Source of the DNA: Thermoanaerobaculia bacterium
GTDB lineage: Bacteria; Acidobacteriota; Thermoanaerobaculia; UBA5066
Direction: 5' to 3'
NCBI GenBank assembly: GCA_022071945.1
Contig: JAJVIN010000021.1
Coordinates: 32,452-96,451 of the forward strand
DNA: 64,000 nucleotides
This document shows, one piece after another, positions 18,673 through 64,000 of this stretch (its first letter is position 1; every line of letters starts with the position of its first letter). Made by a program: the position numbers and the translations under genes. A model generated the notes under the pieces. The model ran no database searches and was not told where the DNA came from. It was given only the letters and a program-made list of their open reading frames with translations.

Positions 18673-18678
18673 AACCCG

Positions 18679-20735: not shown

Positions 20736-20824
20736 CGGGCCCGATTCTAGGCTGTCCAAACGTCCCGGGAACGGAGTCTCCCCGCCAGCCCCGGGCAGCG
20801 TGGGAGCGTATACTCCGCCTTCCC

Positions 20825-22746: not shown

Positions 22747-22751
22747 ACGTC

Positions 22752-23474
22752 ATGGAAAAGGCACGGGTTGACAAGACGTCTCACCGGATCCGGGGGATGT
22801 TCGGCCGGGTGGCGCACCGCTACGACCTCTTGAACCGGCTCCTCTCCGGCGGGTCGGACATCGTCTGGCGCAGAAAGGCCATCCGCCTGCTGTCGCCACG
22901 GCCAGGAGAGCGGAACCTGGACCTGTGCTCGGGCACCGGAGACGTCGCTCTGGAGGTCTTCCGCCGTTCGAGCGGAGAGACGAGGGGCGTGGCCGCCGAC
23001 TTCACCTTCGAGATGCTCGCCCTGGGGAAGCGCAAGATCGAGAGGGCGCGGGCCTCTATCCCCGAGGTCAATGCCGACGCCCTCGCCTTGCCTTTTCAAA
23101 GCGCGTCCTTCGACAGCGCCACGGTCGCCTTCGGCGTGAGGAACTTCGAGAGCTTCGAGAGGGGGATCCGGGAGATCCACCGGGTCCTGAAACCGTCCGG
23201 AAGGCTCGCAATCCTCGAGTTCATCCCCGAGCCCGACTCGATCCTGGCGCCCGGAATCCGCCTCTACACTCGGACCGTCCTGCCCAGGATCGGAGCCTGG
23301 ATCAGCGGCGACGACCACGCGTATCAGTACCTTCCCGATTCGGTCGAACAGTGGCCCAGCCCTGAACTGCTGGGACAGAAACTGAAGCAAGTCGGGTTTG
23401 TGACCGTCCGGTTCGAGGTTCTGGTCCTTGGGATGGCCGCCGTCCACATTGCCGAACGAGGAGGAGAGAGATGA
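22752..23474 (+). CDS. ubiE: Demethylmenaquinone/ubiquinone C-methyltransferase.
   Basis: Class I SAM methyltransferase with DLCSGTGD, and the UbiE/MenG N-terminus HRYDLLNRLLS. Confidence 0.8.
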   Translation: MEKARVDKTSHRIRGMFGRVAHRYDLLNRLLSGGSDIVWRRKAIRLLSPRPGERNLDLCSGTGDVALEVFRRSSGETRGVAADFTFEMLALGKRKIERARASIPEVNADALALPFQSASFDSATVAFGVRNFESFERGIREIHRVLKPSGRLAILEFIPEPDSILAPGIRLYTRTVLPRIGAWISGDDHAYQYLPDSVEQWPSPELLGQKLKQVGFVTVRFEVLVLGMAAVHIAERGGER

Positions 23475-48098: not shown

Positions 48099-49091
48099 AT
48101 GGAGGCTCTTCAGATGGTGGGGGCGAGGGAAGCAGGAGGAACGGGAAAAGCTGGCGAACGCGGCACGGCCGAGATCGCGGGAATGACCTCATCGGGGTGG
48201 CCAGGAGGGACGCCAGGCACGGCGGTGGTCGCACGGTTGAGGGCGGCTCTTCCAGACTCCCTCTCTTCCTTTCTTTCCCGGGGAACGGACCTCTTGCAGC
48301 GCAACCGGTACACCCGGTCAACCGTCTTGCCGACAAGGATTCCGGGGTTTGACGAAGTGCTGGGGGGCGGTTTGCCGAAGGGAGAGGTCGTCGAGATCAC
48401 CGGCTCTCGTTCCTCGGGCCGTTTTTCGCTCGTCCTGTCGCTTCTGGCCGCCGTGACGAGCCAGGGGAATTCCGCGGTTTTCATCGACTTGGGGGACAGT
48501 CTCGACCCGCGAGCCGTCCGGGCGGAGGGAGGGGATCCGTCCCGGCTCCTCTGGGTGCGGCCCCGGAAGTTCCGGGAGGCCCTGGTGGCGGCGGAGATCG
48601 TGGCGGCGACGGGGTTTTCGCTCGTCGTTCTCGACCTGGGGGTGGATCCGATCCGGCGCGGGCCCTTCCGGGAAGCGGCTCCCTGGCTCCGGCTGGCCCG
48701 GACGGTCCGGACGCACGACACGGCCTTCGTGATCCTCGGCGCCACGAGGGTGAGTGGACCGGCGGCGCGTCATGTCCTGTCGCTTGCGCGCCCCCGCTCG
48801 TTCTGGAAGATCGAGGCTCCTGCTCCCCCGCTCCTCGAGGGGCTGGCAACCGGTCTACTGGTCGAGAAGCACCCCGGGTCAGGGCCCGGGCTCTACCGGC
48901 GGATCCGCTTCCAGGTCCCCGAAGCTCTGACCCGGCCGGAGCGTCTCGAGCATGAGGAGCGTGGACGGGCGGCCGGCTCCGTTCCCGCGGTGGCGGCGGA
49001 GGCGCCGGTGCTTCGCAACCCGGAAAGCGCAGAGGGCGGAGCCCCGTCGAAAGCCGCGGCCGCCGTTCACCGGCGGGCAGTGGGGGCGTAA
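48099..49091 (+). CDS. imuA: ImuA-like RecA-fold SOS mutagenesis protein.
   Basis: RecA/KaiC-like P-loop context (IPGFDEVLGGGLPKGEVVEITGSRSSGRFS). It sits directly upstream of imuB and dnaE2. Confidence 0.75.
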   Translation: MEALQMVGAREAGGTGKAGERGTAEIAGMTSSGWPGGTPGTAVVARLRAALPDSLSSFLSRGTDLLQRNRYTRSTVLPTRIPGFDEVLGGGLPKGEVVEITGSRSSGRFSLVLSLLAAVTSQGNSAVFIDLGDSLDPRAVRAEGGDPSRLLWVRPRKFREALVAAEIVAATGFSLVVLDLGVDPIRRGPFREAAPWLRLARTVRTHDTAFVILGATRVSGPAARHVLSLARPRSFWKIEAPAPPLLEGLATGLLVEKHPGSGPGLYRRIRFQVPEALTRPERLEHEERGRAAGSVPAVAAEAPVLRNPESAEGGAPSKAAAAVHRRAVGA

Positions 49092-49102
49092 GGAGGGATC
49101 CC

Positions 49103-50677
49103 GTGGCGCCGCGCATCGCGTGTCTCTTTGTCCCGCTCTTTCCCCTGGCGGCGCGTTTACGCAGTGAGCCTGAGTTGCGCGACGAGGCCGTCGTCATCGT
49201 GGAGGGCAATGGCACGGCGGCCCACGTCGTGGCGGCCTCGAAAAAGAGCCGCAAGGCCGGGATCCAGCCGGGCATGACGCTCCCCCAGGCAAGGGCGCTC
49301 TTACCAAAGCTGGTGGCGCGCAGCCGGGACGCCGCCTGCGAGCGGGCCGCGGAGGAAGTTCTGACCGAGGTCGCGGGCCGCTTCACCCCCCGCTGGGAAG
49401 ACGCGGGGCAGGGAGTGGTTTACCTGGAACTCGGGCAGGCGGGGAAAGAGGACGTGAAAAAACGGGAGAAGCTCCTGGGAAGCGACCTCATTGCCTGTTG
49501 CGAGAAGGAGAGCCTGCCGGCGCGCTGTGGCATCGCCGCGAACAAGCTGGCGGCGCGGGTGGCGGCGGGACTCCCGGAGTCTCCCACGGTCATTCCAGCG
49601 GGCGAGGAGCCGGCGTTTCTGGCACCGCTCCCGCTCGACCGGCTGAGTCCGGAGATCGAGATCTCGGCGGTGCTTTCCCGCTGGGGGCTCTCGTCGATCG
49701 GAGACTTCGCGAAGCTCCCCGCCGCCGAGGTCGTGGCCCGTCTCGGGGAACCCGGCCGGGCGCTGCACGAATCGGCCCGGGGTATCGGCAGTCAGCCCTT
49801 TTTCCCCTCCGTGCCCCCGCCGCTCTTCTCCGAGGGGTTCGACATCGATTGGCCCGTCGTGACTCTCGAACCGTTCCTCGAGTTCGTCGAGGCTGCTCTC
49901 GAAAGGCTCTTGAAGCGCCTCAAGGCCGAGGCCCGAAGCTGCCGGGAGCTCGCCCTGGAAATGAGGCTCGACCCCTCTGGCAGCGACGCGCGGGCGCTGT
50001 CGCTCCCGGCCCCCACACAGGATCTGAAGACACTGAAAACCCTCGTGAAGCTCGAGCTCGAGGCCCGTCCGCCGAAGGCCCCGATCATCGGGTTCACCCT
50101 GTCTGCTCATCCGGACCGGCCCCGGATGGGGCAGCTGACGCTCTTCGGCCCGGTGGAGATCTCTCCCGACCAGCTCGCGACGGCTCTCGCGCGGCTGGCC
50201 GTCCTCGTGGGAGAGGGCCGGATCGGCTCCCCGGATCTCTTCAACGGCCACCTTCCCGAAGGCTTCGTCACCGAGGCGTACGACCCGCCGCCGGCCCCCC
50301 TCAGGCCCACTCCGGCCCGGAGCCGGGGACTTCTCTCCGCACGCGTTCTGCGCCCTCCCGTGGAGCTGGAAGTGTTAACGCAGGAAAAACCGGGCGGCTT
50401 CCGGCTGCTCTCGATCAAGCCACTTCCCGACAGCAAAGCCCTGCACACGGACACGACACCCCGGGAAACTGTCAAGCCGCCAGACGCCAAGGCCCTCGAC
50501 GCGTTACGCGGCACGGTGCTCGTCGCCTCGGGCCCCTGGCACCTCGAGGACGGCTGGTGGAGCGACCAGCCCGTCCGGCGGGCCTACTGGGACCTCGAGA
50601 TATCGGGCGGGACTCTCTGCCGGATCTTTCGAGACGAGACGAACGGCTGCTGGTTCGCGGATGGGATCTATGACTGA
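49103..50677 (+). CDS. imuB: ImuB, Y-family polymerase-like protein of the mutagenesis cassette.
   Basis: The DinB/UmuC-like N-terminus lacks the catalytic acidic triad context. It lies between imuA and dnaE2. Confidence 0.8.
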   Translation: MAPRIACLFVPLFPLAARLRSEPELRDEAVVIVEGNGTAAHVVAASKKSRKAGIQPGMTLPQARALLPKLVARSRDAACERAAEEVLTEVAGRFTPRWEDAGQGVVYLELGQAGKEDVKKREKLLGSDLIACCEKESLPARCGIAANKLAARVAAGLPESPTVIPAGEEPAFLAPLPLDRLSPEIEISAVLSRWGLSSIGDFAKLPAAEVVARLGEPGRALHESARGIGSQPFFPSVPPPLFSEGFDIDWPVVTLEPFLEFVEAALERLLKRLKAEARSCRELALEMRLDPSGSDARALSLPAPTQDLKTLKTLVKLELEARPPKAPIIGFTLSAHPDRPRMGQLTLFGPVEISPDQLATALARLAVLVGEGRIGSPDLFNGHLPEGFVTEAYDPPPAPLRPTPARSRGLLSARVLRPPVELEVLTQEKPGGFRLLSIKPLPDSKALHTDTTPRETVKPPDAKALDALRGTVLVASGPWHLEDGWWSDQPVRRAYWDLEISGGTLCRIFRDETNGCWFADGIYD

Positions 50678-50806
50678 GACGTCGAGTTCCTTCCCGGTGT
50701 CGCCTCCCGTCCAGGGGGAACGGCCTCGTGGGATTCGACACCTCGGACCTCGTGGGATTCAACACCACGAGCCTCGCAGGATCCAACGCCACGGGGAAGC
50801 TCTGGT

Positions 50807-51090
50807 AGCCCCCTCTTTTGTAAAGAGGGGGTTGGGGGAGTTAGAGCCCGCCCGCGAGCCTCACCCACACCGCCGGGCCGCGCTCCTCTTCCTGACACAC
50901 GCCACCAACCCAGCAGAGATTGACGTCAACCTCGCAGAGGCGCTGCTTCGTAGCCCGGCGATTCATCGCCGGGCGTTCGCACGCTTTTCTCCGAACCCCA
51001 AAAAAAAGAGGGCGCGAGGGAACCAAAGTCCAGCCCGGTCTTCCATTCGAGCTCTAACTCCCCCAACCCCCTCTTTACAAAAGAGGGGGC
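50807..51090. mobile_element. MITE-like non-coding element, copy 1. It has perfect 41-bp terminal inverted repeats (50807..50847 and 51050..51090) flanking a 202-bp core.
   Basis: AGCCCCCTCTTTTGTAAAGAGGGGGTTGGGGGAGTTAGAGC and its exact reverse complement. Each TIR contains an internal 10-bp hairpin. Confidence 0.6.
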
Positions 51091-51269
51091 TTTTCGGGCC
51101 GCTCCTGATTCACACCCCGCGGCTTTTCGGGCCGTTCCAGATCCACGCCCGTGGCTTTTCGGGCCGCCACAGATCCACGCCCGTAGCTTTTCGGGCCGCC
51201 ACAGATCCACACCCCACGGCTTTTCGAGCCGCCACAGATCCACGCCCCGCAGCTTTTCGGGCAGACGGA
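51088..51269. repeat. Array of 33-bp tandem repeats (about 5.5 copies in unit 1; a second array of about 3.5 copies lies at 51670..51790).
   Basis: GCTTTTCGGGCCGCCACAGATCCACGCCCGTGG variants sit head-to-tail with no spacers. Confidence 0.85.
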
Positions 51270-51386
51270 ATCTATGACTGAGACGTCGAGGTCCTCTCCG
51301 CTGCCGCCTCCCATCCAGGGAAAACGGGCTGGTGGGATTCAACACCACGGGCCTCGCAGGATTCAACGCCACGGGGAAGCTCTGGT

Positions 51387-51672
51387 AGCCCCCTCTTTTG
51401 TAAAGAGGGGGTTGGGGGAGTTAGAGCCCGCCCGCGAGCCCCACCCGCACCGCCGGGCCACGCTCCTCTTCCTGACACACGCCACCAACCCAGCAGAGAC
51501 CGACGTCAGCCTCGTAGAGGCGCTGCTTCGTAGCCCGGCGATTCATCGCCGGGCGTTCGCACGCTTTTCTCCGAACCCCAAAGAGAAAGGGGGAGCGAGG
51601 GAACCAAAGTCCAGCCCGGCCTTCCATTCGAGCTCTAACTCCCCCAACCCCCTCTTTACAAAAGAGGGGGCT
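51387..51672. mobile_element. MITE-like element, copy 2 (TIRs 51387..51427 and 51632..51672).
   Basis: Identical 41-bp TIRs. The core differs from copy 1 by a few substitutions and a small indel. Confidence 0.6.
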
Positions 51673-51806
51673 TTTCGAGCCGCTCCTGATTCACGCCCCG
51701 TGGCTTTTCGGGCCGTTCCAGATTCACACCCCGCGGCTTTTCGAGCCGCTCCTGATCCACAGCCCGTGGCTTTTCGGGCCGTTCACATCCCGGGGGCTTA
51801 CCCCTC

Positions 51807-54800
51807 ATGACTGAGCGCTTCCCTCCCACCCGCGACCTCTTCATGCCGGGAGACGCGACGAAGATCATCGGCCCCGGCGCCCGCAAGGAGAAGCTGCGCA
51901 ACCGCTCCTTCTCGCCCTCCGCACCCGCACCGGGAGCGCGGTATGTGGAACTGCACGCCGCCTCTGCCTTCTCCTTTCTCGATGGAGCCTCCGAGCCCGA
52001 GGACATCGTGGAAGCCGCCGCCGCCCTTGGTCTCCCCGCGGTCGCCCTCATCGACACGAACGGCGTCTACGGCGCCCCGCGCTTCTACAAGGCGGCGAAG
52101 AAGGCCGGGATCAGGGCTCTCGTCGGCGCGGAAGTCGTCCTGGACCCTTCTCCTTACATCCCTGCCGCTGCCGACACGCAGAAGCGCGGCCCGCTCGGCA
52201 TCGTTCCGCCTCCCCCGCCGCCGGGTCTCCCCCCCGCCCGCGTGACGCTCCTCGTCGAGAGCCAGCGCGGCTACCGCAACCTCTGCCGGCTCCTGACCCA
52301 GGGCGCCCTCGGCAAGCCCAAGGGCGAGGCCGCCGTCACCTGGCACGACATCGCCCACCACTCCGACGGGCTCCACCTCCTGACCGGCAGCGACGAGGGC
52401 CCCGTCGCGCGCACCCTCGCCCAGGAGGGGATCGACTCGGCCCGGCGTCTTCTCGAGCGGCTCTCCGCCCTCTTCCCCGATCGCTGTCACGTGGAACTCC
52501 AGCGGCACAACCGTCGCGACGAGGAGCACCGCAACCAGGCCCTCGTCTCCCTCGCCCGCTCGCTCAAGCTCCCCCTGCTCGCGACGAACGGCGTCCGGTA
52601 CGCACGGCGGGAAAAGCGGCCGCTCTTCGACATCCTGACCTGCATCCGGAACCACACGACGCTCGACGCCGCTGGGACCCTGCTCGACATCAACCGCGAA
52701 CGCCACATGAAGAACGCCTCCGAGATGGCGCTCCTCTTCGCCGACCTCCCCGAGGCCGTCGTCCATGGCGTCGAGCTTTCCGAGAGGCTCGACTTCACGC
52801 TCGCCAACCTCGGCTACCGCTTCCCCGAGTACCCGCTCCCGCCCGGAGACACCGCCGCTTCCCTCCTGCGCCGCCTCACGTGGGAAGCCGCGATGAGCCG
52901 CTTCCGCCCGCTTTCGGCCAAGGCCCAGGCACAGATCAACAAGGAACTCGCCCTCATCGAGAAGCTCGACCTCGCCGGCTACTTCCTCATCGTCTGGGAC
53001 ATCATCCAGTTCTGCAAGAGGAACGGGATCCTCGCGCAGGGACGCGGCTCGGCCGCCAACAGCGCGGTCTGCTACGCCCTCTCCATCACGGCCGTCGATC
53101 CGGTCAAGATGGACCTCCTCTTCGAACGCTTCCTCTCCGAGGAGCGGGGCGAGTGGCCCGATATCGACCTCGATCTCCCCTCCGGCGATGCCCGGGAGAG
53201 CGTCATCCAGTACGTCTACCGGCGCTACGGCTCGCACGGTGCCGGGATGACGGCCAACGTCATCACGTATCGCGACCGCTCCGCCGCCCGCGAGGTCGCC
53301 AAGTCTCTCGGCTTCTCCGCCGAGCAGGTCGACCGGCTCGCCAAGCACCTCGGCAAGTGGAGCTTCGGCGAGTTCCGCGACGGGTTGCGGAAGTTCCCGG
53401 AAGAGATGCGGGCCGCCGGATTCGACCCCGAAGACCTCCGAATCCGGCACTTCGAGACCTTCTGGAAGGAGATCCAGAACCTCCCCCGCCACCTCGGCCA
53501 GCACTCGGGCGGGATGGTCATCGCCATGGGGCGGCTCGACGAGGTCGTCCCGCTCGAACCCGCGGCGATGCCGGGCCGCAACGTCATCCAGTGGGACAAG
53601 GACGACTGCGCCGACCTAGGGATCGTCAAGGTCGACCTCCTCGGGCTCGGGATGCTCGGGGCGATCGCCGAGATGATCCCGACGATCCGGGAGCACGAGA
53701 AGGTCGACGTCGACCTCGCTCATCTCCGCATGGACGACCCGAAGGTCTTCCAGATGCTCAACGAGGCCGACACGGTGGGCGTCTTCCAGGTGGAAAGCCG
53801 TGCGCAGATGGCGTCGCTCCCCAGAAACGCGCCGAGGAACTTCTACGACCTCGTCATCCAGGTGGCCATCATCCGGCCCGGGCCCATCGTCGGCGGGATG
53901 GTCCACCCCTTCTTCGACCGCCGCCAGGGACGCGCCCCGGTCGAGTACCCGCACCCCTCGCTCGAACCCATCCTGGCCCGGACGCTCGGCGTCCCGCTCT
54001 TTCAGGAACAGCTCCTGAAGATCGCCATGGTCGCGGCGGGCTTCACCGGGGGCGAGGCGGAGGAGCTGCGGCGCGCGATGGGCTTCAAGCGTTCCTCCGA
54101 GCGGATGGCCGTCATCGAGAAGCGGCTGCGCGACGGGATGACGAACCGCGGCATCACGGGCGAGGCGCAGGAACAGATCGTCAAGTCGATCACCTCCTTC
54201 GCGCTCTACGGATTTCCGGAGTCCCACGCGGCGAGCTTCGCCCTCATCGCCTACGCGAGCTGCTACCTGAAGGCCCACCACCCCGCGGCGTTCCTGAAAG
54301 GGCTCCTCAATGCCTGGCCGATGGGCTTCTACCACCCGGCAACTCTCGTCAAGGACTCCCAGCGGCACGGCGTGACAGTCCTACCGATCGACGTCTCCCA
54401 CTCGGGCTGGATGTGCCGGATCGAGAAGGGAGCCGTGCGGCTCGGAATGAGGTTCTTGAAAGGCCTCCGGCAGGCCGCCGGGGAGCGAATCGCGAGGGAA
54501 GCTTCGTTCCGTCCCTTCGGAAGCACGCAAGAACTGGCGCGGCGCTGTGAACTCCACGAGGACGAACTCTCGGCCCTCGCCTTCTCCGGAGCGCTCGGAT
54601 CCCTCGGCCTGACGCGGCGTGAGTCGCTCTGGCAGGTGGCGGCGGTTTCCCGGCACCAGGGACCGCTCTTCGATTCCTCGGACGAGGAGATGGCGCCGTC
54701 CCCGCTCCCGGAGATGTCGTCCTTCGAGGAGACGGTCGCGGACTACACCTCCTCCGAGATCACGGCGGGACCGCATCTGATCGCCTACTACCGGAGGCAG

Positions 54801-55127
54801 TTCCGGGAGAAATCGATCTTCTCCGCGGAGGAGCTGACACGGCTCCCGGACGGCATGCGGGTCCGGACGGGAGGGGCGGTCGTCGTGAGGCAGCGGCCCG
54901 GGACAGCGAAAGGGTTCGTCTTTCTCTCACTCGAGGACGAGACGGGAATGGCCCAGGCGATCGTGAAGCCCGACATCTTTCGCGAGAACCGGGCGCTCAT
55001 CGTCGGGTCGCCAGGCCTCATCGTGGAGGGGCGGCTGCAGAAGACCGACGGGACGCTTTCCGTGAGGGCGGAGAAGTTCTGGCGGCTGCCGGACCTGCCA
55101 CAGATCCCGAGTCACGACTTCAGATGA
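51807..55127 (+). CDS. dnaE2: Error-prone DNA polymerase DnaE2 (ImuC).
   Basis: PHP domain (HAASAFSFLDGAS) and Pol III alpha catalytic core. The DnaE2-type C-terminus lacks tau-binding extensions. Confidence 0.9.
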   Translation: MTERFPPTRDLFMPGDATKIIGPGARKEKLRNRSFSPSAPAPGARYVELHAASAFSFLDGASEPEDIVEAAAALGLPAVALIDTNGVYGAPRFYKAAKKAGIRALVGAEVVLDPSPYIPAAADTQKRGPLGIVPPPPPPGLPPARVTLLVESQRGYRNLCRLLTQGALGKPKGEAAVTWHDIAHHSDGLHLLTGSDEGPVARTLAQEGIDSARRLLERLSALFPDRCHVELQRHNRRDEEHRNQALVSLARSLKLPLLATNGVRYARREKRPLFDILTCIRNHTTLDAAGTLLDINRERHMKNASEMALLFADLPEAVVHGVELSERLDFTLANLGYRFPEYPLPPGDTAASLLRRLTWEAAMSRFRPLSAKAQAQINKELALIEKLDLAGYFLIVWDIIQFCKRNGILAQGRGSAANSAVCYALSITAVDPVKMDLLFERFLSEERGEWPDIDLDLPSGDARESVIQYVYRRYGSHGAGMTANVITYRDRSAAREVAKSLGFSAEQVDRLAKHLGKWSFGEFRDGLRKFPEEMRAAGFDPEDLRIRHFETFWKEIQNLPRHLGQHSGGMVIAMGRLDEVVPLEPAAMPGRNVIQWDKDDCADLGIVKVDLLGLGMLGAIAEMIPTIREHEKVDVDLAHLRMDDPKVFQMLNEADTVGVFQVESRAQMASLPRNAPRNFYDLVIQVAIIRPGPIVGGMVHPFFDRRQGRAPVEYPHPSLEPILARTLGVPLFQEQLLKIAMVAAGFTGGEAEELRRAMGFKRSSERMAVIEKRLRDGMTNRGITGEAQEQIVKSITSFALYGFPESHAASFALIAYASCYLKAHHPAAFLKGLLNAWPMGFYHPATLVKDSQRHGVTVLPIDVSHSGWMCRIEKGAVRLGMRFLKGLRQAAGERIAREASFRPFGSTQELARRCELHEDELSALAFSGALGSLGLTRRESLWQVAAVSRHQGPLFDSSDEEMAPSPLPEMSSFEETVADYTSSEITAGPHLIAYYRRQFREKSIFSAEELTRLPDGMRVRTGGAVVVRQRPGTAKGFVFLSLEDETGMAQAIVKPDIFRENRALIVGSPGLIVEGRLQKTDGTLSVRAEKFWRLPDLPQIPSHDFR

Positions 55128-55139
55128 AAGGAGAACCCC

Positions 55140-55766
55140 ATGATTCCAGAGCCCAGTTCGTATAGTGTTCCGGCGATGTCGAGCCAGCCTCTGCGCCGCC
55201 GCGCGACCTACCAGGACATCCTGGACCTGCCAGACAACGTGACCGGTCAGCTCGTCGATGGCGAGTTGATCGCGTCGCCGCAACCGGTCATCCGGCACCA
55301 ATGGAGTGCTTCCGCGCTGGGCGGCGACCTTTTCAACCCATTCCATCGCGGCCGGGGTGGCCCTGGGGGCTGGTGGATCATCGATGAGCCCGAGCTTCAC
55401 CTCGAAGAAGACATCCTCGTGCCGGATATCGGCGGCTGGCGAAAAGAGAAGCTCCCGATCCTCCCGGACGAGCCGTACTTCACGCTCGCTCCCGACTGGG
55501 TCTGTGAGGTTCTCTCCCCTTCGACGGCCCGCATCGACCGGATCAAGAAGCTCCCGATTTACGCACGCGAAGGTGTCAGCCACGTCTGGCTGATCGATCC
55601 CGATCTTCAGACTCTCGAGGTCTTCAGGCTCGAGGGTCAGCGCTGGCTGCTGCTCCTGACGGCGGGAGGAGACGAGGTCGTGAGGGCCGAGCCGTTCGAT
55701 GCCATCGAGTTGGAACTGGCGGGACTCTGGATCCAGCCGGCGGCGGCCGAACCGGACCGCCGCTGA
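55140..55766 (+). CDS. Uma2-family (DUF820) putative endonuclease, second paralog.
   Basis: PDWVCEVLSPST core. An AGGAGA RBS sits 12 nt after the dnaE2 stop. Confidence 0.75.
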   Translation: MIPEPSSYSVPAMSSQPLRRRATYQDILDLPDNVTGQLVDGELIASPQPVIRHQWSASALGGDLFNPFHRGRGGPGGWWIIDEPELHLEEDILVPDIGGWRKEKLPILPDEPYFTLAPDWVCEVLSPSTARIDRIKKLPIYAREGVSHVWLIDPDLQTLEVFRLEGQRWLLLLTAGGDEVVRAEPFDAIELELAGLWIQPAAAEPDRR

Positions 55767-56052: not shown

Positions 56053-56745
56053 ATGGTCGTGCCCGCCGAAAACGCCCCGCCCCGGCACCGGCAGCTCAGG
56101 CAGTGGGTCGCGGATCACCTGCGAGCGGAGATCCTCGAAGGAAAGCGAAAGCCCGGCGACTGGCTCCGGCAGGAGCAACTCGCCCGCGAGCTGGACGTCA
56201 GCCAAACACCTGTCCGAGAAGCGCTCAAACAGCTCGTGGCGGATGGGCTCCTGGAACACGTCCCCTACCGGGGCATCCAGGTCGTCCGGTTCTCGGTCGA
56301 GGACGTCGAGGACCTCTACGAGAGTCGCTCGGTCCTGGAAGCGATGGCGGCGCGCCACGCCGCGACCGCGATCACCGCGGAGGAACTGAAGCTCCTGGCA
56401 TCGCTTCACTCCCGGATGCTCGAGTGCGAGATGCCGTCCCAGCTGAAGGCCTACCGCGACCTCAACCGGCGTTTCCACGAGACCATCATCACGGCGTCGC
56501 GCCGGAGCTTCCTCACGCGCACCTTGAGCCAGCTCTGGACGGCGTTCCCGACCATGCTCTGGAGCAACGTCCCCCACATCGCCCTCAAGTCCATCCCCGA
56601 GCGGGACGAGCCGGATAACGCCGAACACGCCGAGATCGTCGCGGCCCTGCAGGCCCGCGATCCGGACCGCGCCGCGCGAGCCGCCAGAAGCCACATCGAG
56701 AGTGCGGGCCGGACCCTCCTGGCGGCGATGAAAGCCCGTCCATGA
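56053..56745 (+). CDS. GntR-family (FadR/FCD subfamily) transcriptional regulator.
   Basis: N-terminal wHTH (EQLARELDVSQTPVREALKQL) and a C-terminal all-helical FCD domain. Confidence 0.8.
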   Translation: MVVPAENAPPRHRQLRQWVADHLRAEILEGKRKPGDWLRQEQLARELDVSQTPVREALKQLVADGLLEHVPYRGIQVVRFSVEDVEDLYESRSVLEAMAARHAATAITAEELKLLASLHSRMLECEMPSQLKAYRDLNRRFHETIITASRRSFLTRTLSQLWTAFPTMLWSNVPHIALKSIPERDEPDNAEHAEIVAALQARDPDRAARAARSHIESAGRTLLAAMKARP

Positions 56746-56915
56746 ACAGCTCGCAGGGTTTCCGCCACCCGGCGGATCCGCAATGCGGCATCCCATCCCC
56801 TTCATCCGGACGGCTGACCGTCAGCGGGACCGCCGCGCGGCGGCCCGTGCCATTCCCGGTCTCTAACGGTCATCGGGCGCCACAAGCCCGTCATTCCCAG
56901 CCCCGAGGAGGAGAA

Positions 56916-59654
56916 ATGTCAAAGAAGATCCTGATTCCCATATGTGCTGCTGTGTTCATCCTGCTCGGTCTCCCCGCGACCCTCTGGGCCCAGGGTTCGG
57001 TCACGGGGCGAATCGAGGGAGTCGTCAAGGACAACACCGGCGCCGCGTTGCCCGGGGTCGCCGTCACGGCGTCCTCGGATGCCCTGGTCATGCGGAAGAC
57101 GACAACCGTCACAGACAGTCGCGGCGCCTACCGCTTCCCGGCGCTCCCTCCAGGGAAGTACACGGTGGAGGCAATGCTGACGGGATTCGAGACCGCACGC
57201 CGGGAAGGCGTGAAGGTCATCCTCTCGCAGGCCATCGCCGTCGACCTCGTGCTGGACGTCTCGAAGGTCTCGGCCACCGTCACGGTGACGGGCGAGGCGC
57301 CTCTCGTCAGCGTCGTCTCCAATAGCGTCTCGGCGAACTTCGGCCAGGACTACCTGGAAAAGCAGGCGGTCCCCCGTAACTACTACCAGGTGATCACGAG
57401 CGCTCCCGGCGTCAACGCCGACGCCCTCTCGTCGAGCGGCAGCGCGATCCTCGCCTACGGCGCCACGACGGAGGGACAGAATGCCTACACCCTCGATGGC
57501 GTCAACATCGCCGACACCGGCTCCGGTCAGCACTGGCTCCTCCCCAGCATCCAGTGGATGGAGGAAATCCAGATCATGGGCCTCGGGGCCAATGCCGAGT
57601 TCGGCGGGTACACCGGCGGCATCATCAACGGCGTCACGAAGTCTGGCGGGAACGAGTTCAAGGGAGGATTCGAGGTCTACTACGAGCCCGAATCCTGGGT
57701 CTCGGACAACACCGACGGGGACACTCAGGAGACGTTCAAGTTCGAGGACTACTCCCTGAGCCTCGGAGGGCCGATCGTCAGGGACAAGCTCTGGTTCTTC
57801 GCCAGCGCCGAGTACTGGCACCAGGTCTCGACCCCCGTCGGCGCCGCCGGCACCTCCGACCGGAAGATCCCCCGGTTCCTGGGAAAAGTGACGTACCAGA
57901 TGAACGAGAAGAACCGCGTCTTCGTGATGGGCGAATACGATGCCGTGACCAACGACCGGCGCGGAATCAGCACCTACACGCTCCCCACCGGCGCGCAGAA
58001 GCAGGACGGCCCGGGCTTCAACTTCTCCCTGAACTGGGAGTCCCTCGTCTCCTCGTCGAACTTCCTCAACCTCAAGGTCACGGGCTACGACGGGAACGAC
58101 GACTACCTCCCCTACGGCGGGACGTCGATGCCGGGCAACAATGACTACTACAACACCGAGTACATCTGGAACAACGCCCCCTTCCAGAACCTCTCCCACC
58201 GCCATCTCGTGACGGGAGACGCCTCGTGGAGCCTCTTCGTGGACGGGCTCGTCGCCAAGACCGACTCGCACTCGTTCAAGTTCGGGGGCCTTTACGAGGA
58301 AGCCAACGCCACCGACTCGTGGCGGCGCAACGGCGGCTTCACTTACTACGACGACTCCTCTCAGTGTGACTCCCTCGACGCGTACTTCGCGAACCCGGCG
58401 TGCGGGCGCTACGAGCGCTCTAGAGGCTATGGCGAGTACGAGGTCCACGCTCAGCACAAGGGCTGGACGCTCTACGCTCAGGACTCCATGCGCCTCAACC
58501 GTGTCACTGTCAACTTCGGTCTGCGCTACACGGGCTACCGGGCCGGGTGGCAGGAAGGGTTCGGCGACTCGACCGTCTACTCTACTGACTTCGTCGACCC
58601 GCGCATCGGCTTCGCCTGGGATGTCGCCGGCAACGCCAAGTGGGCCGTGAAGGCGCACTGGGGCCGCTACCACTCCTCGATGTACACGTATCTGTACGAC
58701 CGCGAGCGGTCGGGCCACGCCACGATCCAGGACGCGGACAGCTCCTGGGACCCGGATACCAACACATGGGGACCGTGGGTCAATGCCGGCGCGCCGATCG
58801 AGGCCGCCATGGGCAGCACCTCGCACCCGTATGTCGACGAGACGCTCATCACCGTCGAGCACCAGCTCGGCAAGGACATGTCCCTCGGCCTCGACTTCAT
58901 CGACAGACGGTTCGCCAACATCATGGGGCTCGTCAACACCAACGATGACTACACGGCGGTCACGACCACCAACCCGTACACCGGGGGAACCCTCCAGATC
59001 TGGACCCTCAATACGCCGCAGAACTGGGTCCTGACGACCGACAACCCCGGGTACCGGACGTACGACTCCTTCGTCCTGCGGTACGAGAAGCGGTACGCGC
59101 AAGGCTGGCAGCTCCGCTCCTCCCTTGTCTGGACGGACCTGAAGGGCAACGTTCTGAAGAACAACGGCTACGCGGACGAGCTGAGGGACAAGAATGGACT
59201 CGTGAACGCCGACGGGAGGATGGACCTCTCTTACAACGAGTGGGAGTTCAAACTCTCCGGCGCCGTCGACCTCCCGGTCGGGTTTGTTCTCAGCGGCCAG
59301 TACACGTATCTCTCCGGGCAGTACTACACGCCCTATGCCAGGGTCGACGCCTTCCTCGACGAGAATTCCTCTAGCGGCCGTTACGTCAACCTCACCGAGC
59401 GCGGCGCCGAGAAGCTCCCGGCTCGCAACATTCTCGACCTCCGCCTCGCGTGGGGGACGAAGATCGCCAAGTCCTTCCGTCTCGACCTTTCCCTCGAGTG
59501 CTTCAATGTCCTGAACACGGGCGAGACACTCGACCTCGACACGTACTATGCCCGATACAGACGGGGGCAGTGGCAACTCCAGCCCAACTACGGCACCCCG
59601 ACTGCCATCGAGAAGCCGCGCGAGTTCCGCGCCGGCTTGCGCTTCTCCTTCTGA
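56916..59654 (+). CDS. TonB-dependent outer-membrane receptor with an N-terminal carboxypeptidase-regulatory-like domain.
   Basis: Signal peptide, then a CarboxypepD_reg-like domain (GSVTGRIEGVVKDNTGAALPGVAVTA), a plug, and a beta-barrel. The C-terminus ends in F. Confidence 0.85.
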   Translation: MSKKILIPICAAVFILLGLPATLWAQGSVTGRIEGVVKDNTGAALPGVAVTASSDALVMRKTTTVTDSRGAYRFPALPPGKYTVEAMLTGFETARREGVKVILSQAIAVDLVLDVSKVSATVTVTGEAPLVSVVSNSVSANFGQDYLEKQAVPRNYYQVITSAPGVNADALSSSGSAILAYGATTEGQNAYTLDGVNIADTGSGQHWLLPSIQWMEEIQIMGLGANAEFGGYTGGIINGVTKSGGNEFKGGFEVYYEPESWVSDNTDGDTQETFKFEDYSLSLGGPIVRDKLWFFASAEYWHQVSTPVGAAGTSDRKIPRFLGKVTYQMNEKNRVFVMGEYDAVTNDRRGISTYTLPTGAQKQDGPGFNFSLNWESLVSSSNFLNLKVTGYDGNDDYLPYGGTSMPGNNDYYNTEYIWNNAPFQNLSHRHLVTGDASWSLFVDGLVAKTDSHSFKFGGLYEEANATDSWRRNGGFTYYDDSSQCDSLDAYFANPACGRYERSRGYGEYEVHAQHKGWTLYAQDSMRLNRVTVNFGLRYTGYRAGWQEGFGDSTVYSTDFVDPRIGFAWDVAGNAKWAVKAHWGRYHSSMYTYLYDRERSGHATIQDADSSWDPDTNTWGPWVNAGAPIEAAMGSTSHPYVDETLITVEHQLGKDMSLGLDFIDRRFANIMGLVNTNDDYTAVTTTNPYTGGTLQIWTLNTPQNWVLTTDNPGYRTYDSFVLRYEKRYAQGWQLRSSLVWTDLKGNVLKNNGYADELRDKNGLVNADGRMDLSYNEWEFKLSGAVDLPVGFVLSGQYTYLSGQYYTPYARVDAFLDENSSSGRYVNLTERGAEKLPARNILDLRLAWGTKIAKSFRLDLSLECFNVLNTGETLDLDTYYARYRRGQWQLQPNYGTPTAIEKPREFRAGLRFSF

Positions 59655-59724: not shown

Positions 59725-60627
59725 GTGAAGCATCCCGTGACCCTGCGTCCTCTTCGTCGACTGCCGCTGCTCTTCCTGGTCCTCGCTCTGGCGGCGGTGC
59801 CCGCCGGGGCCGAGCCGGCTCTCGCCGGCCGTGGGCATCTGGTCCTGATCGGCGGTGGCGAGAAGCCGGCCGACGCGATGCTGAAGTTCATCGAGCTTTC
59901 GGGCGGCAAGGACGCGCCGATCGTGATGATCCCGACCGCGTCCACCGACGCGGACGCTCCCGAGTTCTACGAGAAGCTCTTCCGCGAGACCTTCGGGTGC
60001 GAAAAGGCCGTGTCGCTTCGGATTCGAAGCAAGGCCGACGCGTCGCGGCCCGACTACGTCGAACTCGCGGCCAGAGCCCGGGGAATCTTCTTCGGGGGAG
60101 GAGACCAGATCCGGATCACGGGGGCCCTCCTGGGGACTCCCGTGGGCGATGCCATCGCCCGCTCCTTCGCGCATGGCGCGGTCGTTGGCGGGACCTCCGC
60201 CGGAACTGCCTGTCAGAGCGAGGTCATGATCACGGGAGAAGGGGACTTCTCCGTCATCCGGACGCGAAGTGTCGAGACCTGGCAGGGACTGGGATTCCTC
60301 CCCGCCGGAGTCGTCGTCGACCAGCACTTCATCAAGCGGCAGCGCGAGAACCGCCTCCTCTCGGTCATTCTCGAGAACCCCAGCCTGCTCGGCGTAGGCG
60401 TTGACGAGGAGACCGCGATCTGGGTGCGGCCAGACGGGACGTTTCAGGTTCTGGGAAAGAGCAGTGTCATGGTCGTCGACGCCAAGGGCGCGGCTCCGAG
60501 CCGCCAGGCACGGCCCACGGGCCAGGACTCGCTCGGCGTCCACGATCTGAAGGTCCACGTTCTCCTTCCGGGCGAACAGTTCGACCTCGGCTCCCGCGCG
60601 GTCCTGCCGGTGCCGCCCGGTCGCTGA
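59725..60627 (+). CDS. Secreted cyanophycinase / peptidase S51 family (CphE-like).
   Basis: Signal peptide. S51 signature GTSAG with the conserved GGG...Q.HF region. A GTG start follows GGAG. Confidence 0.7.
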   Translation: MKHPVTLRPLRRLPLLFLVLALAAVPAGAEPALAGRGHLVLIGGGEKPADAMLKFIELSGGKDAPIVMIPTASTDADAPEFYEKLFRETFGCEKAVSLRIRSKADASRPDYVELAARARGIFFGGGDQIRITGALLGTPVGDAIARSFAHGAVVGGTSAGTACQSEVMITGEGDFSVIRTRSVETWQGLGFLPAGVVVDQHFIKRQRENRLLSVILENPSLLGVGVDEETAIWVRPDGTFQVLGKSSVMVVDAKGAAPSRQARPTGQDSLGVHDLKVHVLLPGEQFDLGSRAVLPVPPGR

Positions 60628-60803
60628 GCGGTCGCGCCAGCTTCCATCCAACGACCGCGGGTGACGGGTCCAGCGACCCGGGCGCGGTCTACGGGCGCCC
60701 GTGTCGCGGACGAGACGGCCTGGAGCACAGGGGCTCCTCCTCCCGCCTTGGCCTCCACTCCCTCTGCTAGCATGCGTCCATTCCCCTCGACCGGAGGTTG
60801 ACC

Positions 60804-63611
60804 ATGAACGAGCGGGCCAGCCGGAAGATCCCCGTCACCGAACGGCAGTTCCTCTGGGTACAGGACGACGACAAGGGCGAAGTGACCCTCCACGTCGGCC
60901 CGACGATGGTGTCACCGACCGCCGCGGACCGCGTCGTCGTCGATGACGGGCTCGGAGGGTTCCGAGAGGACCCGACCGGAAAGCCGCAGATGATGGTCGA
61001 GGTCAGCGACATCCAGTACGCCGTCCTCTTCAATCCGCTCCTGGAGCCGGACGGGGGCCCGAACGGGAAGTTCAAGCAGGGCCGCAACGAGTCGCGGCCC
61101 CTGAAGAACGGGACGCGATCGATGATCCCCGGACCGTGCAGCTTCTGGCTGCGGCCGGGACAGCGCGTGGAGGTCCGGGACGCCCATGAACTCGCCTCGG
61201 ATCAGTACCTCGTCGTCAAGGTCTATGGAGAGGTCGACCGGACCGCTCCCTTCTACGACCTGACGGCCCGCTCCGCGCGCATCACTCGCGCCACCGCCGA
61301 GAACGTGGGCGGAGACAAGAAGGACAGCACCCGCCTCGCCGACCTCGAGCCGAGCGAGTTGCAGCGCGGTCAGCTCATCGTCATCCGGGGGCTCGACACC
61401 CAGCTCTACATGCCGCCCACGGGTGTCGACGTCGTCCCGGATACCTCCGTCGATCCCTCCGGACTGGGTCTCTCCGCCGAGGCGGCCCGGACGCTCCTCA
61501 ACCAGCTTTCGTCGGAGGTTTCGGAGCCGAAACCCGAAGCTCTTCTGCCGGCAACCGAGGAGGAGTATCCGAACATCCCCGAGGCGCAAAAACAGGTCAT
61601 GCGCCGCGGGCTCGCAGAGGCGGACACAGTCGATCAGGCAGCCCGCAGCCGGCAGAAGAAGTTGATGCCGCCGCCAATGGCGGTCCAGTCGGCGATGGCG
61701 CCGCCCCCGGCACCCCCTCCGCCCTCCCCGGCGCCGGCTCCATCCCTGTCCGAGTTCCTCGCGGTTCCCGAGGTCCGCCGTGCCCTCGAGCGCCAGGCGC
61801 GGCAGGCGAGACTCATCAGACGCGCGGTCGTCCTCGGTGAAAAGGAGTACTGCGTCATCATCGACGCGGACGGCAAGCGCGAGATCAAGTTCGGCCCGGC
61901 TCGCGTCTTTCCCGGACCTTACGACCAGTTCCAGGTCAAGGGCTCGCGCAACCGGATCTACGACGCCTACGAACTCCTCCCACAGCGGGCCCTCTGGCTC
62001 CGGATAATCTCGCCCATCTCACGGGCGGAACTTGCCGCGAAGCTCCCGAAAGGCGTCACCCTCGATCAGGAGCACTACACGCCCGGCGACGAACTCCTCT
62101 TGACGGGCGTCTCAACGTTCTTCTTTCCCTTCAACGAGATCGAGGTCCTCTCGCCTGAATCGGGAGAAGCCATCGTCGGCAACGATCACTCGCGCGTCTT
62201 CATCGAGGCCATCGGGATCGACCAGAAGAGCGGGATCTACGTGCGCGACCTCTCGACCGGCGAGGCGCGTCTCGTACGCGGAAAGCTGTCCTACCTGGTC
62301 GATCCGAGGAAAGAAGTCCAGATCACGCGGACGGTTCCGGCCGACGACTGGAACCTCTGGATCGCGGCGATGGAGCCTCACAAGCGGACCAGCGTGCCCG
62401 TGACCACTCCGTGGGCCGTTTCCATCACGGTCCCCCACAACACGGCCGTTCTCGTCACTTCCGCCGATGGCCAGCGCGTCGCGGAGGGGCCGTGCGTGAC
62501 CCTCCTCGGCTACGAGGAGAGACTGACGCCTCTGTCGCTGTCGACGAGTACCCCGAAGACGGACGAGCGGCTCCTGCGGACGTGTTTCCTCCGGTCGACG
62601 GGCAACCGGGTCTCTGACGAGATCTCGGTCGAGACGGCGGACTTCGTCCGGATCTCCATCCGGGTGTCGTATTCCGTCACGTTCTTGCCGGAGCTCCGCC
62701 AGAGGTGGTTCAACCACGAGAACTACATCCAGGTTCTTTGCGAGCACCTGCGTTCCCTCGTCAGGAGCCGCTGTCGCACCATGACCCTGTCGGCCCTCTG
62801 GCCGCAGCTTCCGAACTTGATCCGCGACACCATCCTGGGTGAGCGGACGGCCGAGGGACGCAAGGGCCGCATCCTCAACGAGAACGGCCTCATCGTCAGC
62901 GAGGTCGAGATCCTCCTCTCCAAGATCGAGGATGCGGAGATCGGCGACCTGATGCGGAAGGTGCAGACCCAGTCGGTGACGCTCCAGATCGGCGACCGCC
63001 AGGCACAGGAAGCACTCGCCTCGGCCCGCCTGCGCTCGGAAGTCGAGAAGGAGCAGAAAGACCTCGAGATGTCGGGACACGAGCGGTCCGCGGCCGTCAG
63101 GGAGTTGGTCAGGCGACTCACGCACGGGGACGTGATGGGACGGGTGAAGGACGAGGAAGCCGTGGCGATGGAGCGGAGTTCTCTCGCCCAGCAACGGGAA
63201 GACCTCGTCCAGAAAGCCGAACTCGAGAGACAAAAGGAGAAGCGAGAGACCGAACTGCTTCTCGTTCAGAGGGACGCGAGCGTGCGGTCAGAAGCCCAGA
63301 GGGCCCTGCAGTCCGCCGACGCCGAGTTCAAGGAGAGGCTCCACGAACTCGAGGTGAAACTGATCCAGGCGCAATCGGCCGCCTCGGTGGCCGAAAAGGA
63401 GGCCGTGCAGCGGGGCCTCATCGAGGCGCTGACGGCGCTCGGCGACAAGGTCCTCCTGAGCGAGGCGGCGGCCAACATGAACCTCGTCTCTCTTCTGAAG
63501 GGCAAGGATGTCGCCTCGCTCCTCTCGGAAGTCTTCGGCGGGACGAAGGTCATGCCGACCCTCGCGGCCATGGTTGAGAAATTCGGGACTCAGCCCCCGC
63601 CAAAGAGCTGA
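60804..63611 (+). CDS. Major vault protein (MVP) homolog: N-terminal vault repeats, shoulder (SPFH-like) domain and a C-terminal coiled-coil cap helix.
   Basis: Colinear similarity to eukaryotic MVP runs from the N-terminus to the cap. EYCVIIDADGK aligns with NYCVILDPVGPDGK. GIYVRDLSTGEARLVRG aligns with GIYVQDVKTGKVRAVIG. VTTPWAVSITVPHNTAV aligns with VVSYRVPHNAAV. ISVETADFVRISIRVSYSVTF aligns with [21 protein letters not shown]. The start is preferred at ATG 60804 with GGAGG at 6-nt spacing, but the TTG at 60798 heading the listed ORF is only 1 nt after the GGAGG, so the start is uncertain. Confidence 0.85.
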   Translation: MNERASRKIPVTERQFLWVQDDDKGEVTLHVGPTMVSPTAADRVVVDDGLGGFREDPTGKPQMMVEVSDIQYAVLFNPLLEPDGGPNGKFKQGRNESRPLKNGTRSMIPGPCSFWLRPGQRVEVRDAHELASDQYLVVKVYGEVDRTAPFYDLTARSARITRATAENVGGDKKDSTRLADLEPSELQRGQLIVIRGLDTQLYMPPTGVDVVPDTSVDPSGLGLSAEAARTLLNQLSSEVSEPKPEALLPATEEEYPNIPEAQKQVMRRGLAEADTVDQAARSRQKKLMPPPMAVQSAMAPPPAPPPPSPAPAPSLSEFLAVPEVRRALERQARQARLIRRAVVLGEKEYCVIIDADGKREIKFGPARVFPGPYDQFQVKGSRNRIYDAYELLPQRALWLRIISPISRAELAAKLPKGVTLDQEHYTPGDELLLTGVSTFFFPFNEIEVLSPESGEAIVGNDHSRVFIEAIGIDQKSGIYVRDLSTGEARLVRGKLSYLVDPRKEVQITRTVPADDWNLWIAAMEPHKRTSVPVTTPWAVSITVPHNTAVLVTSADGQRVAEGPCVTLLGYEERLTPLSLSTSTPKTDERLLRTCFLRSTGNRVSDEISVETADFVRISIRVSYSVTFLPELRQRWFNHENYIQVLCEHLRSLVRSRCRTMTLSALWPQLPNLIRDTILGERTAEGRKGRILNENGLIVSEVEILLSKIEDAEIGDLMRKVQTQSVTLQIGDRQAQEALASARLRSEVEKEQKDLEMSGHERSAAVRELVRRLTHGDVMGRVKDEEAVAMERSSLAQQREDLVQKAELERQKEKRETELLLVQRDASVRSEAQRALQSADAEFKERLHELEVKLIQAQSAASVAEKEAVQRGLIEALTALGDKVLLSEAAANMNLVSLLKGKDVASLLSEVFGGTKVMPTLAAMVEKFGTQPPPKS

Positions 63612-63662: not shown

Positions 63663-63692
63663 CCCCTTCTCCCGCACTTGCGGGAGAAGGGG
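63663..63692. terminator. Bidirectional terminator: perfect 12-bp stem CCCCTTCTCCCG cacttg CGGGAGAAGGGG.
   Basis: Read directly from the sequence, between MVP and the convergent gene. Confidence 0.7.
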
Positions 63693-63706: not shown

Positions 63707-64000
63707 TTACGGCATCGGCACGAGCCCCAGCGTCCTCGCCAGGAACTCCCCGATCTGCGCCCGGGTCACAAGATCATTCGGACAGAACTTCAGGTTGTTT
63801 CCAGGTGTCCCGGAGCATCCCGACGTGATCCGGTCCTGGAAGGCCAGGTTCGCTTCGCGGCGCGGCCACCCAGGTACGTCCATTGCGCCACCGGCGTCAG
63901 TCCACCCCTTGCATGCCGGGTAGGCGACCGCACAGCCCGGATCCGTCTCGCCCACCGTCGACAGAAGCGTGTTGAGGACTCCCGTCTGCCGCAGCCGCTC
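63707..64000 (-). CDS. C-terminal part of a protein of unknown function (5' end beyond the window).
   Basis: The open frame continues to the window edge. The C-terminus has the Cys-rich pattern DPGCAVAYPAC...SGCSGTPGNNLKFCPNDLVTRAQIGEFLAR. Confidence 0.4.
   Translation of the reverse strand, partial: ERLRQTGVLNTLLSTVGETDPGCAVAYPACKGWTDAGGAMDVPGWPRREANLAFQDRITSGCSGTPGNNLKFCPNDLVTRAQIGEFLARTLGLVPMP

Follow-up and report, generated by a model that had tools for sequence, protein, structure and literature searches.

A 64,000-nucleotide (nt) stretch of a Thermoanaerobaculia contig (JAJVIN010000021.1), referred to throughout as the window, carries a gene belonging to the major vault protein (MVP) family directly 3' of a cyanophycinase gene. 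Our analyses identify its product, of 935 amino acids (aa), as a genuine full-length MVP-family protein that is encoded in a bacterial chromosome. The gene and its flanking features, in window coordinates, are as follows.

59725–60627, + strand: Peptidase_S51 (cyanophycinase) gene, ending 176 nt before the MVP start (Pfam E = 9e-22; relatives named cyanophycinase)
60793–60797, + strand: Shine-Dalgarno-like GGAGG, 6 nt upstream of the MVP ATG, read from the sequence
60804–63611, + strand: MVP-family coding sequence, 935 aa plus stop codon
63663–63675 and 63680–63692, no strand assigned: perfect inverted repeat (13-bp stem, 4-nt loop) in the interval that separates the MVP gene from a convergent gene

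The reading frame, its length, and its canonical start signals are as given in a preliminary description made from the sequence, with GGAGG at 6 nt from the ATG; a TTG also lies in frame two codons 5' of this ATG, and separate gene calls on other assemblies likewise yield a product of 935 aa. The gene ranks first among 25 window genes in the closeness of its codon usage to the pooled usage, and its GC content also matches the window, confirming the host-like composition described earlier. The same description placed a bidirectional terminator 3' of the gene and a hairpin after the cyanophycinase gene, and took the MVP gene to be monocistronic. The first of these stands in part: the 13-bp stem is perfect, and folding of the 3' intergenic region is more stable than that of shuffled sequence (z = -3.8 and -4.9 on the + and - strands, respectively), but no T-run follows the repeat and a terminator scan did not list it, leaving a bidirectional terminator as a possible function suggested by the stem. 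The upstream hairpin did not survive, as the 176-nt spacer is no more stably folded than shuffled sequence (z = -0.05). Since, furthermore, no sigma-70-like promoter was found 5' of the gene, its monocistronic status is unproven. Beyond the inverted repeat, positions 63707–64000 (- strand) hold the C-terminal fragment of the convergent gene, which is cut by the window end and has no Pfam match; an SLH-type motif was noticed in its last 30 residues by eye only.

Profile and pairwise searches agreed on the family assignment. Pfam MVP_shoulder (PF11978) matched aa 601–705 (E = 5e-18; 65.6 bits against a cut-off of 25) and Vault_3 matched aa 539–594 (E = 2.7e-9; 37.5 bits against 28.8). The expectation that Pfam vault and shoulder models would recognize the protein was borne out by these two, but not by Vault_4, which scored below its cut-off (aa 469–514; 18.6 bits against 22.9), or by the classical Vault model PF01505, which gave no match. 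A phmmer search of all Protein Data Bank (PDB) sequences returned MVP chains only (E ~ 1e-22), aligning aa 342–854 with MVP 274–807, and a profile built from 54 orthologs improved this match to E = 7e-32. With hhalign, the family profile aligned aa 343–729 with human MVP 275–662 (probability 99.7; E = 5e-27). The MVP homology claimed earlier is thereby upheld. NCBIfam and PADLOC searches of the protein gave no match, and its assignment to a known defense system or NCBIfam family was rejected on this ground.

Identity to human MVP is low along the entire alignment. The human sequence used for comparison is 100% identical over 893 residues to PDB 11dr_A. BLASTP gave 28% identity over aa 344–686, and a Smith-Waterman alignment gave 25.4% over aa 343–933; the longest identical run is four residues (YCVI), and the best 10-mer and 20-mer windows contain 7/10 and 11/20 identities, respectively. 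The near-identity to human MVP that had been reported over stretches of 10 to 20 residues is therefore absent. Significant sequence-level alignment to MVP is confined to aa ~343–935; in the N-terminal 215 aa, hhalign detected two weak signals, one between aa 64–213 and human repeats R6–R7 (E = 4e-4) and the other between aa 12–83 and human 11–69 (E = 0.03). Across the 54 orthologs, column identity averages 63%, and hundreds of residues are invariant.

The architecture of the protein was examined with an AlphaFold2 (AF2) monomer model computed from a diverse 82-sequence alignment, with a mean predicted local distance difference test score (pLDDT) of 82.9 and a predicted template modeling score of 0.61. 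This model superseded an earlier one from 54 close orthologs, which at pLDDT 56 was unusable for the repeats. Residues 10–215 and 335–720 have pLDDT >90, and residues 217–310 are disordered. The following regions were delineated.

60804–61448, + strand: aa 1–215, beta-rich N-terminal region with ~3 vault-repeat-like modules (aa 9–55, 65–140, and 150–212)
61449–61742, + strand: aa 216–313, disordered Pro/Ala-rich insert, subfamily-specific (pLDDT <50)
61743–61823, + strand: aa 314–340, Arg-rich helix before the next repeat (model helices 315–320 and 322–337; net charge +4)
61824–62603, + strand: aa 341–600, four vault repeats equivalent to MVP R6–R9 (phmmer and hhalign to rat/human 274–520; pLDDT >93)
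62604–62933, + strand: aa 601–710, shoulder domain with the SPFH/Band-7 fold
62934–63443, + strand: aa 711–880, cap-helix-like long continuous alpha-helix, aligning with human MVP 648–814
63444–63608, + strand: aa 881–935, short C-terminal helices, cap-ring-like, with a conserved LGDK motif, aligning with human 815–881

The protein thus comprises ~3 + 4 repeats, an SPFH shoulder, a cap helix of ~157 residues, and short C-terminal helices, with an insert of ~120 aa, and it presents repeats, shoulder, and cap helix in full-length colinear order. Colinearity with MVP from the first repeat to the cap helix, as stated in the preliminary description, holds in the predicted structure, but by sequence it extends only from aa ~343 onward. 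The N-terminal 215 aa correspond to 268 aa of human MVP, and the strand pattern of the model yields ~3 + 4 = ~7 modules in place of the nine repeats (R1–R9) of the eukaryotic protein. As Asgard MVP relatives also have fewer repeats, nine repeats define the eukaryotic protein and not the family.

The insert lies between repeats 3 and 4 and ranges from 84 to 149 aa within the subfamily; the P205-to-L344 spacing that holds it is 111–190 aa in this subfamily versus ~20 aa in most of the wider family. In the Arg-rich helix that follows, R325, E329, R333, R336, and R339 are conserved. Inside the otherwise variable insert, Q278, R281, and R283 (aa 278–283; 61635–61652) are invariant over the 54 orthologs. 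Judged by these residues, the basic insert motif and the Arg-rich helix might together act as a short linear motif that binds a partner or a polyanion.

Toward the C terminus, the AF2 model contains one helix of 157 residues (711–867), a second helix at 870–899, and C-terminal helices at 903–910 and 917–927; G880, D881, and K882 are invariant. The shoulder is nearly invariant in length across the family. From the shoulder end to the C-terminal LGD motif, sequences in the family-wide alignment measure 160 (48 sequences), 175 (11 sequences), or 179 residues (23 sequences); the cap-helix span is 179 in the window protein versus ~169 in human MVP, the latter being a hand count from the human sequence. 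This pattern suggests subfamilies with fixed cap-helix lengths and perhaps fixed particle geometries. A hydrophobic segment is absent from the protein, as the maximum Kyte-Doolittle value over 19 residues (KD19) is 1.29 and falls inside a beta-repeat.

The locus itself is part of a normal bacterial chromosome. Besides cyanophycinase, window genes encode Lon protease, an imuA-imuB-dnaE2 cassette, a GntR regulator, and an outer membrane protein (OMP) with a CarboxypepD_reg domain. Named relatives of the window Lon and cyanophycinase come from Thermoanaerobaculia/Acidobacteria only, save one Lon match labeled Acidithiobacillales, whereas every other named MVP relative belongs to Polyangia, Myxococcota, or Planctomycetota. 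The OMP-S51-MVP junction was recovered from two independent read sets (assemblies SRR32799350 and SRR32799349). Moreover, a sister lineage represented in three samples (L080–L082), at 95.7% nucleotide identity, has the same Uma2-GntR-OMP-S51-MVP order, with an MVP protein 99% identical to that of the window and the frame intact at 935 aa in both. These observations bear out the earlier view that the gene is resident and neither contamination nor part of a chimera.

Between the two lineages, the MVP gene has accumulated 69 synonymous and 12 nonsynonymous changes (dN/dS, the ratio of nonsynonymous to synonymous rates, = 0.054), which shows strong purifying selection on the gene. At 0.105, its dS equals the value for the neighboring OMP gene, which places the MVP gene in the common ancestor of both lineages. 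In four further loci (L083–L086), whose cyanophycinase is 78–83% identical, the OMP-S51 pair is kept without an MVP gene, and the gene that comes after S51 is either a convergent MR_MLE or a PGA_cap gene. The MVP gene is therefore a lineage-specific, single-gene insertion 3' of cyanophycinase. In a neighbor-joining tree, the window protein pairs with the homolog P0002 (76% identity) beside a Polyangia sequence, within a Myxococcota-dominated clade; horizontal transfer is most likely, with a Polyangia-like (Myxococcota) organism as the putative donor.

Several observations concern the neighboring genes. The imuA-like (RecA fold), imuB (IMS family), and dnaE2 (error-prone Pol III alpha) genes form a complete mutagenesis cassette at 48099–55127, which is followed by a Uma2 endonuclease-like gene (55140–55766). 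Over 55140–55763, compared with its counterpart in the sister lineage (L080, 1080–1703), this Uma2 gene has a dS of 0.56, against 0.07–0.24 for neighboring genes, a difference that suggests local recombination or allele replacement at Uma2. The OMP gene (56742–59654), with CarboxypepD_reg and OMP_b-brl_4 domains, has its longest open reading frame from 56742, but gene calls and Pfam favor 912 aa from 56916; a 1008-aa antisense reading frame overlaps it, and such frames are a frequent artifact of high-GC DNA.

Relatives of the protein are numerous. A word-indexed protein search returned 411 relative clusters at 90% identity, the best 120 of which are all full-length and 58–76% identical to the window protein; the names among these 120, the window's own record aside, are Polyangia, Polyangium, Byssovorax, Minicystis, and Planctomycetes. 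The MVP_shoulder domain is precomputed for nearly all homologs among the matches listed, and some relatives already bear the label "major vault protein" (JGI) or "Major vault protein shoulder domain-containing protein" (UniRef, Polyangium). In an exhaustive HMMER search, 966 clusters at 50% identity reached E ≤ 1e-3, and 472 of them reached E ≤ 1e-30. The best 150 of its clusters all score >230 bits, and vertebrate MVP scored ~83 bits in the PDB search; as this corresponds to an estimated E ~ 1e-18 for vertebrate MVP on the larger library, eukaryotic MVPs should be more distant from the query than these 472 clusters. When each GTDB species was represented by one genome, a scan yielded 73 loci, mostly in Myxococcota with some in Planctomycetota, and 218 viral contigs in IMG/VR encode full-length relatives. 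The preliminary description had called bacterial occurrences extremely sparse, which is wrong in view of at least 472 clusters, 73 species genomes, and 218 viral contigs.

Nor is a prokaryotic vault relative new as such, bacterial MVP homologs having been published since 2013. Daly et al. (2013; PMC3762200) described bacterial homologs with ~25% identity to eukaryotic MVP in Corallococcus, Plesiocystis, Saprospira, Microscilla, and Herpetosiphon; Sokolskyi (2019; bioRxiv 10.1101/872010) reported homologs in Enhygromyxa and other bacteria; a 2023 preprint (bioRxiv 10.1101/2023.11.10.566534), the sole report on phage MVP that we found, presented two phage MVP cases; and a 2026 study (PMC12962969) found MVP homologs in Asgard archaea. 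In the literature searched, we found no experimental demonstration of a prokaryotic vault and no characterized prokaryotic MVP homolog. The window gene hence adds one member to a family that is known but experimentally unexplored, and whose relatives are common in myxobacteria and large phages.

The viral members differ in setting. The IMG/VR contigs with MVP-like genes (L090–L169 examined) are low in GC and many are 100–470 kb long; their MVP-like proteins are 25–38% identical to the window protein and match it over residues ~1–920, N-terminal region included. In 42 of the 80 viral loci, at least one of an RlaP nucleotidyltransferase, an AAA_33 kinase, an RNA ligase, or DUF2828 + DUF7788 lies within 5 kb in the same direction. 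Genes for a metallophosphoesterase and for separate Band_7/flotillin proteins often accompany these RNA-repair-type clusters, and DUF2828 is often directly upstream of the MVP-like gene. Hidden Markov models built from the viral-locus neighbors had no match in the window or in its clade, and a DUF2828 profile run against the PDB for a TROVE/Ro60 relation found nothing, which leaves that relation conjectural. Burroughs and Aravind, writing in NAR in 2016, are said to have proposed SPFH/Band-7 and Rot/TROVE scaffolds for RNA repair. The viral gene context is a hint that members of the wider family could serve as scaffolds in RNA-repair or conflict systems, a role that cannot be transferred to the window gene with confidence. 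In three distant loci, a PTS HPr gene stands directly beside the MVP-like gene (L087 3841–8469, L088 6001–8894, and L090 5001–7871): L087 has the order HPr, PtsI, MVP-like with a 5-nt gap, and in L088 HPr overlaps the MVP-like stop. HPr occurs in none of the other 79 viral loci, nor in the window's clade.

Within the window's own clade, no neighbor is conserved beyond genus-level synteny in Polyangium. A Pfam scan of 335 neighbors within 5 kb at ~50 loci, with a further batch of 97 neighbors outside the scan, found no recurrent partner among those 335. The 64-kb window has no Rfam family and, by ARAGORN, no tRNA; no NfeD or FtsH-type partner adjoins the MVP gene; and phmmer seeds for TIR, DUF4062, and STAND-WD40 found nothing in the window or in the other loci of its clade. 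Two individual loci do carry such genes. In a Planctomycetota metagenome-assembled genome (L005), a TIR_2 + LD_cluster2 gene (13039–15084) overlaps the stop of an MVP ortholog with 64% identity and is followed by a SAM-TIR-NPHP3_N-WD40 (STAND) protein (15948–20447). In L003, a DUF4062-AAA_16-WD40 (TEP1-like STAND) gene (19568–22814) lies 6.7 kb downstream of the closest homolog (76% identity), reminiscent of TEP1, the vault partner with TROVE, DUF4062, NACHT, and WD40 domains. A TEP1-like/TIR partner was rejected as a general association, because these are 2 of ~64 loci and no further case appeared in scans and seed searches.

The Polyangium loci (L004, L008, L009, L010, L019, L036, and L074) have an arrangement of their own, in which the MVP start coincides with, or is overlapped by, the end of a MutS_V-domain protein and a conserved ~330-aa protein, without a Pfam match in the L004 copy, begins on the same strand 11–37 nt past the MVP stop; MutS_V also adjoins the MVP start in L011 and L022. 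Judging from gene order, this may be a genus-level Polyangium operon.

We propose that the window gene is a horizontally acquired prokaryotic member of the MVP family whose product likely forms a ring-symmetric, vault-like shell, a reading that we hold to be reasonably probable. The gene was gained by the Thermoanaerobaculia lineage as a single insertion 3' of cyanophycinase and has been inherited vertically thereafter under strong purifying selection. Solved relatives that combine an SPFH domain with a long helix (MVP, HflK/C, flotillin, prohibitin, erlin, and stomatin) all form ring-symmetric cups; because every solved relative of this design does so, the window protein most likely self-assembles in the cytoplasm into a ring-symmetric shell. 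By the same analogy, (i) a closed cap would arise through bundling of the cap helices, (ii) the repeat staves would pack side by side as the barrel wall, and (iii) the resulting vault-like shell would be shorter than the eukaryotic one. The invariant shoulder length and the discrete cap-helix length classes speak for a geometry under constraint. A more far-reaching version, which we regard as rather doubtful, would have the Polyangia-type subfamily, the window copy included, form a true closed vault-like compartment in the bacterial cytoplasm, with the insert and its conserved basic motif as a flexible tether for cargo or RNA, and would derive the whole prokaryotic and phage family from an RNA-repair ribonucleoprotein (RNP) shell or scaffold; the eukaryotic vault RNP (MVP, a TROVE/TIR-like protein, and a small RNA) would then have its evolutionary root in that origin.

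Several points weigh against the proposed shell and its history. The argument for assembly is one of analogy, and ~7 repeats instead of nine, together with a long flexible insert that splits the stave, might block a regular barrel. The 64-kb window contains no TEP1, PARP4-like, TROVE, or vault-RNA/Y-RNA partner, and it stops 390 bp past the MVP stop codon, limiting the downstream view to that distance. The neighbor-joining tree carries no bootstrap support. Myxococcota are generally high in G+C, and the putative donors are presumably of similar G+C, so the codon match cannot date the transfer. Finally, the nicotinamide adenine dinucleotide (NAD+)/ADP-ribose "keyhole" pocket in the shoulder of human MVP, which is lined by R437, R504, K506, R507, P508, H509, R511, L517, D521, F522, W545, P565, and K573 (13 residues; PMC12280208), is not kept. 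Only 1 of the 13 residues is conserved (K506, as K585), along with the adjacent P505 (as P584); K585 is a lysine in 128 of 130 family members. The equivalent of R437 is deleted, the R8 loop being shorter, and the remaining positions are occupied by T583, T586, D587, R589, L591, R597, N601, R602, V625, E639, and E647. Residue alignment with human MVP thus speaks against a conserved pocket, with some doubt about its loss, as basic residues appear at shifted positions in the alignment.

Among the other explanations, a conflict-system scaffold or compartment for RNA repair or antiphage immunity, which would sequester RNA, repair enzymes, or NAD-consuming effectors, draws on the RNA-repair-type genes within 5 kb in 42 of 80 viral loci, on the translational coupling of the Planctomycetota ortholog (64% identity) to TIR_2 and then SAM-TIR-STAND-WD40, on the DUF4062-STAND-WD40 gene 6.7 kb from the closest homolog, and on the status of the window gene as a horizontally acquired accessory gene. 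However, the window and ~75 loci of its own clade contain no such partner, PADLOC gave no match, the phage relatives are only 25–38% identical, and the TIR/DUF4062 cases (2 of ~64 loci) may be chance; the phyla concerned are rich in STAND proteins. We consider this role unlikely for the window protein. Less likely still is a role as an SPFH/Band-7-type scaffold, in which the protein would build a small cage apposed to the membrane, as HflK/C, flotillin, or QmcA do; the repeats would then be accessory, and no free barrel would form. The shoulder does have the SPFH fold, SPFH cages are the next-best structural matches, some relatives show weak Band_7 matches, and prokaryotes commonly use this design for such cages; but the protein lacks a transmembrane or hydrophobic anchor (maximum KD19 of 1.29), ~600 of its 935 residues are conserved vault repeats absent from SPFH proteins, MVP chains outscore SPFH proteins by 30 orders of magnitude, and no NfeD or FtsH-type partner is adjacent.

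Two explanations remain. A patchy distribution, a stand-alone gene, and a long low-complexity insert could point to a decaying relic of a transferred gene without current function; this is very improbable given a dN/dS of 0.054 (69 synonymous versus 12 nonsynonymous changes), a frame intact at 935 aa in two lineages, and the conservation of the 54 orthologs (63% column identity on average, with hundreds of residues invariant). Eukaryotic contamination, in the form of a protist MVP misassembled into a bacterial contig, has a negligible probability: MVP is best known from eukaryotes and the gene lies near the window end, but the protein is 25–28% identical to human MVP versus 58–76% to hundreds of prokaryotic relatives, its junction recurs in SRR32799350, SRR32799349, and three sister-lineage samples, its dS equals that of the neighboring gene, and it has a bacterial Shine-Dalgarno sequence, no intron, and window-typical codon usage.

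What vaults do has been an unanswered question since 1986. Should a bacterial MVP form a shell, vault assembly and function could be studied in a simple, genetically tractable system, and a new protein nanocage would be at hand; cultivable Polyangium and Minicystis carry orthologs ~65% identical to the window protein. The window copy adds a new host phylum, represents a clean single-gene horizontal insertion kept under strong selection, and led to the evidence for a large, partly phage-borne family. By itself it does not change existing knowledge, and any of hundreds of orthologs would be equally usable.

Compared with known systems, the window protein shares an SPFH-fold domain with the SPFH/Band-7 proteins (HflK/C, QmcA, flotillin, prohibitin, erlin, and stomatin), but these are membrane-anchored and have no vault repeats, whereas it has ~600 repeat residues and no hydrophobic segment. 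It resembles the phage MVP-like proteins in full-length homology, conserved N-terminal region included; the phage genes reside on low-GC viral contigs in RNA-repair clusters, whereas the window gene is chromosomal, high in GC, and without such neighbors. Like the bacterial homologs of 2013 and 2019, it is bacterial, has ~25% identity to eukaryotic MVP and a predicted MVP fold, and belongs to a Myxococcota-centered group. It differs from them, as compared by description, in its host phylum, Acidobacteriota (Thermoanaerobaculia), which is not listed in PMC3762200 or bioRxiv 10.1101/872010, and its Polyangia-type subfamily is set apart by the long disordered insert. The Asgard homologs (PMC12962969) likewise have a prokaryotic MVP fold with fewer repeats than the eukaryotic protein (five versus nine), and their assembly is modeled only. 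They differ from it in lineage and in repeat number, no disordered insert is reported for them, and half of them are reported to affiliate with a clade that includes eukaryotic MVPs (PMC12962969). From eukaryotic MVP itself (PDB 4V60, 9BW5, and 11DR), the window protein is separated by 25–28% identity, ~7 instead of nine repeats, the ~120-aa disordered insert, the missing R437 equivalent, the shorter R8 loop, and a pocket lost save for the P-K pair. The eukaryotic vault, a 78-mer RNP whose two 39-mer halves make up a D39 barrel, has TEP1, PARP4, and vault-RNA partners, none of which is in the window, and assembly of the window protein is predicted only. Nevertheless, the two proteins have repeats, an SPFH shoulder, a cap helix of ~155 residues, and C-terminal helices in the same order, and they are colinear by sequence from R6 on and over their full length by predicted structure.

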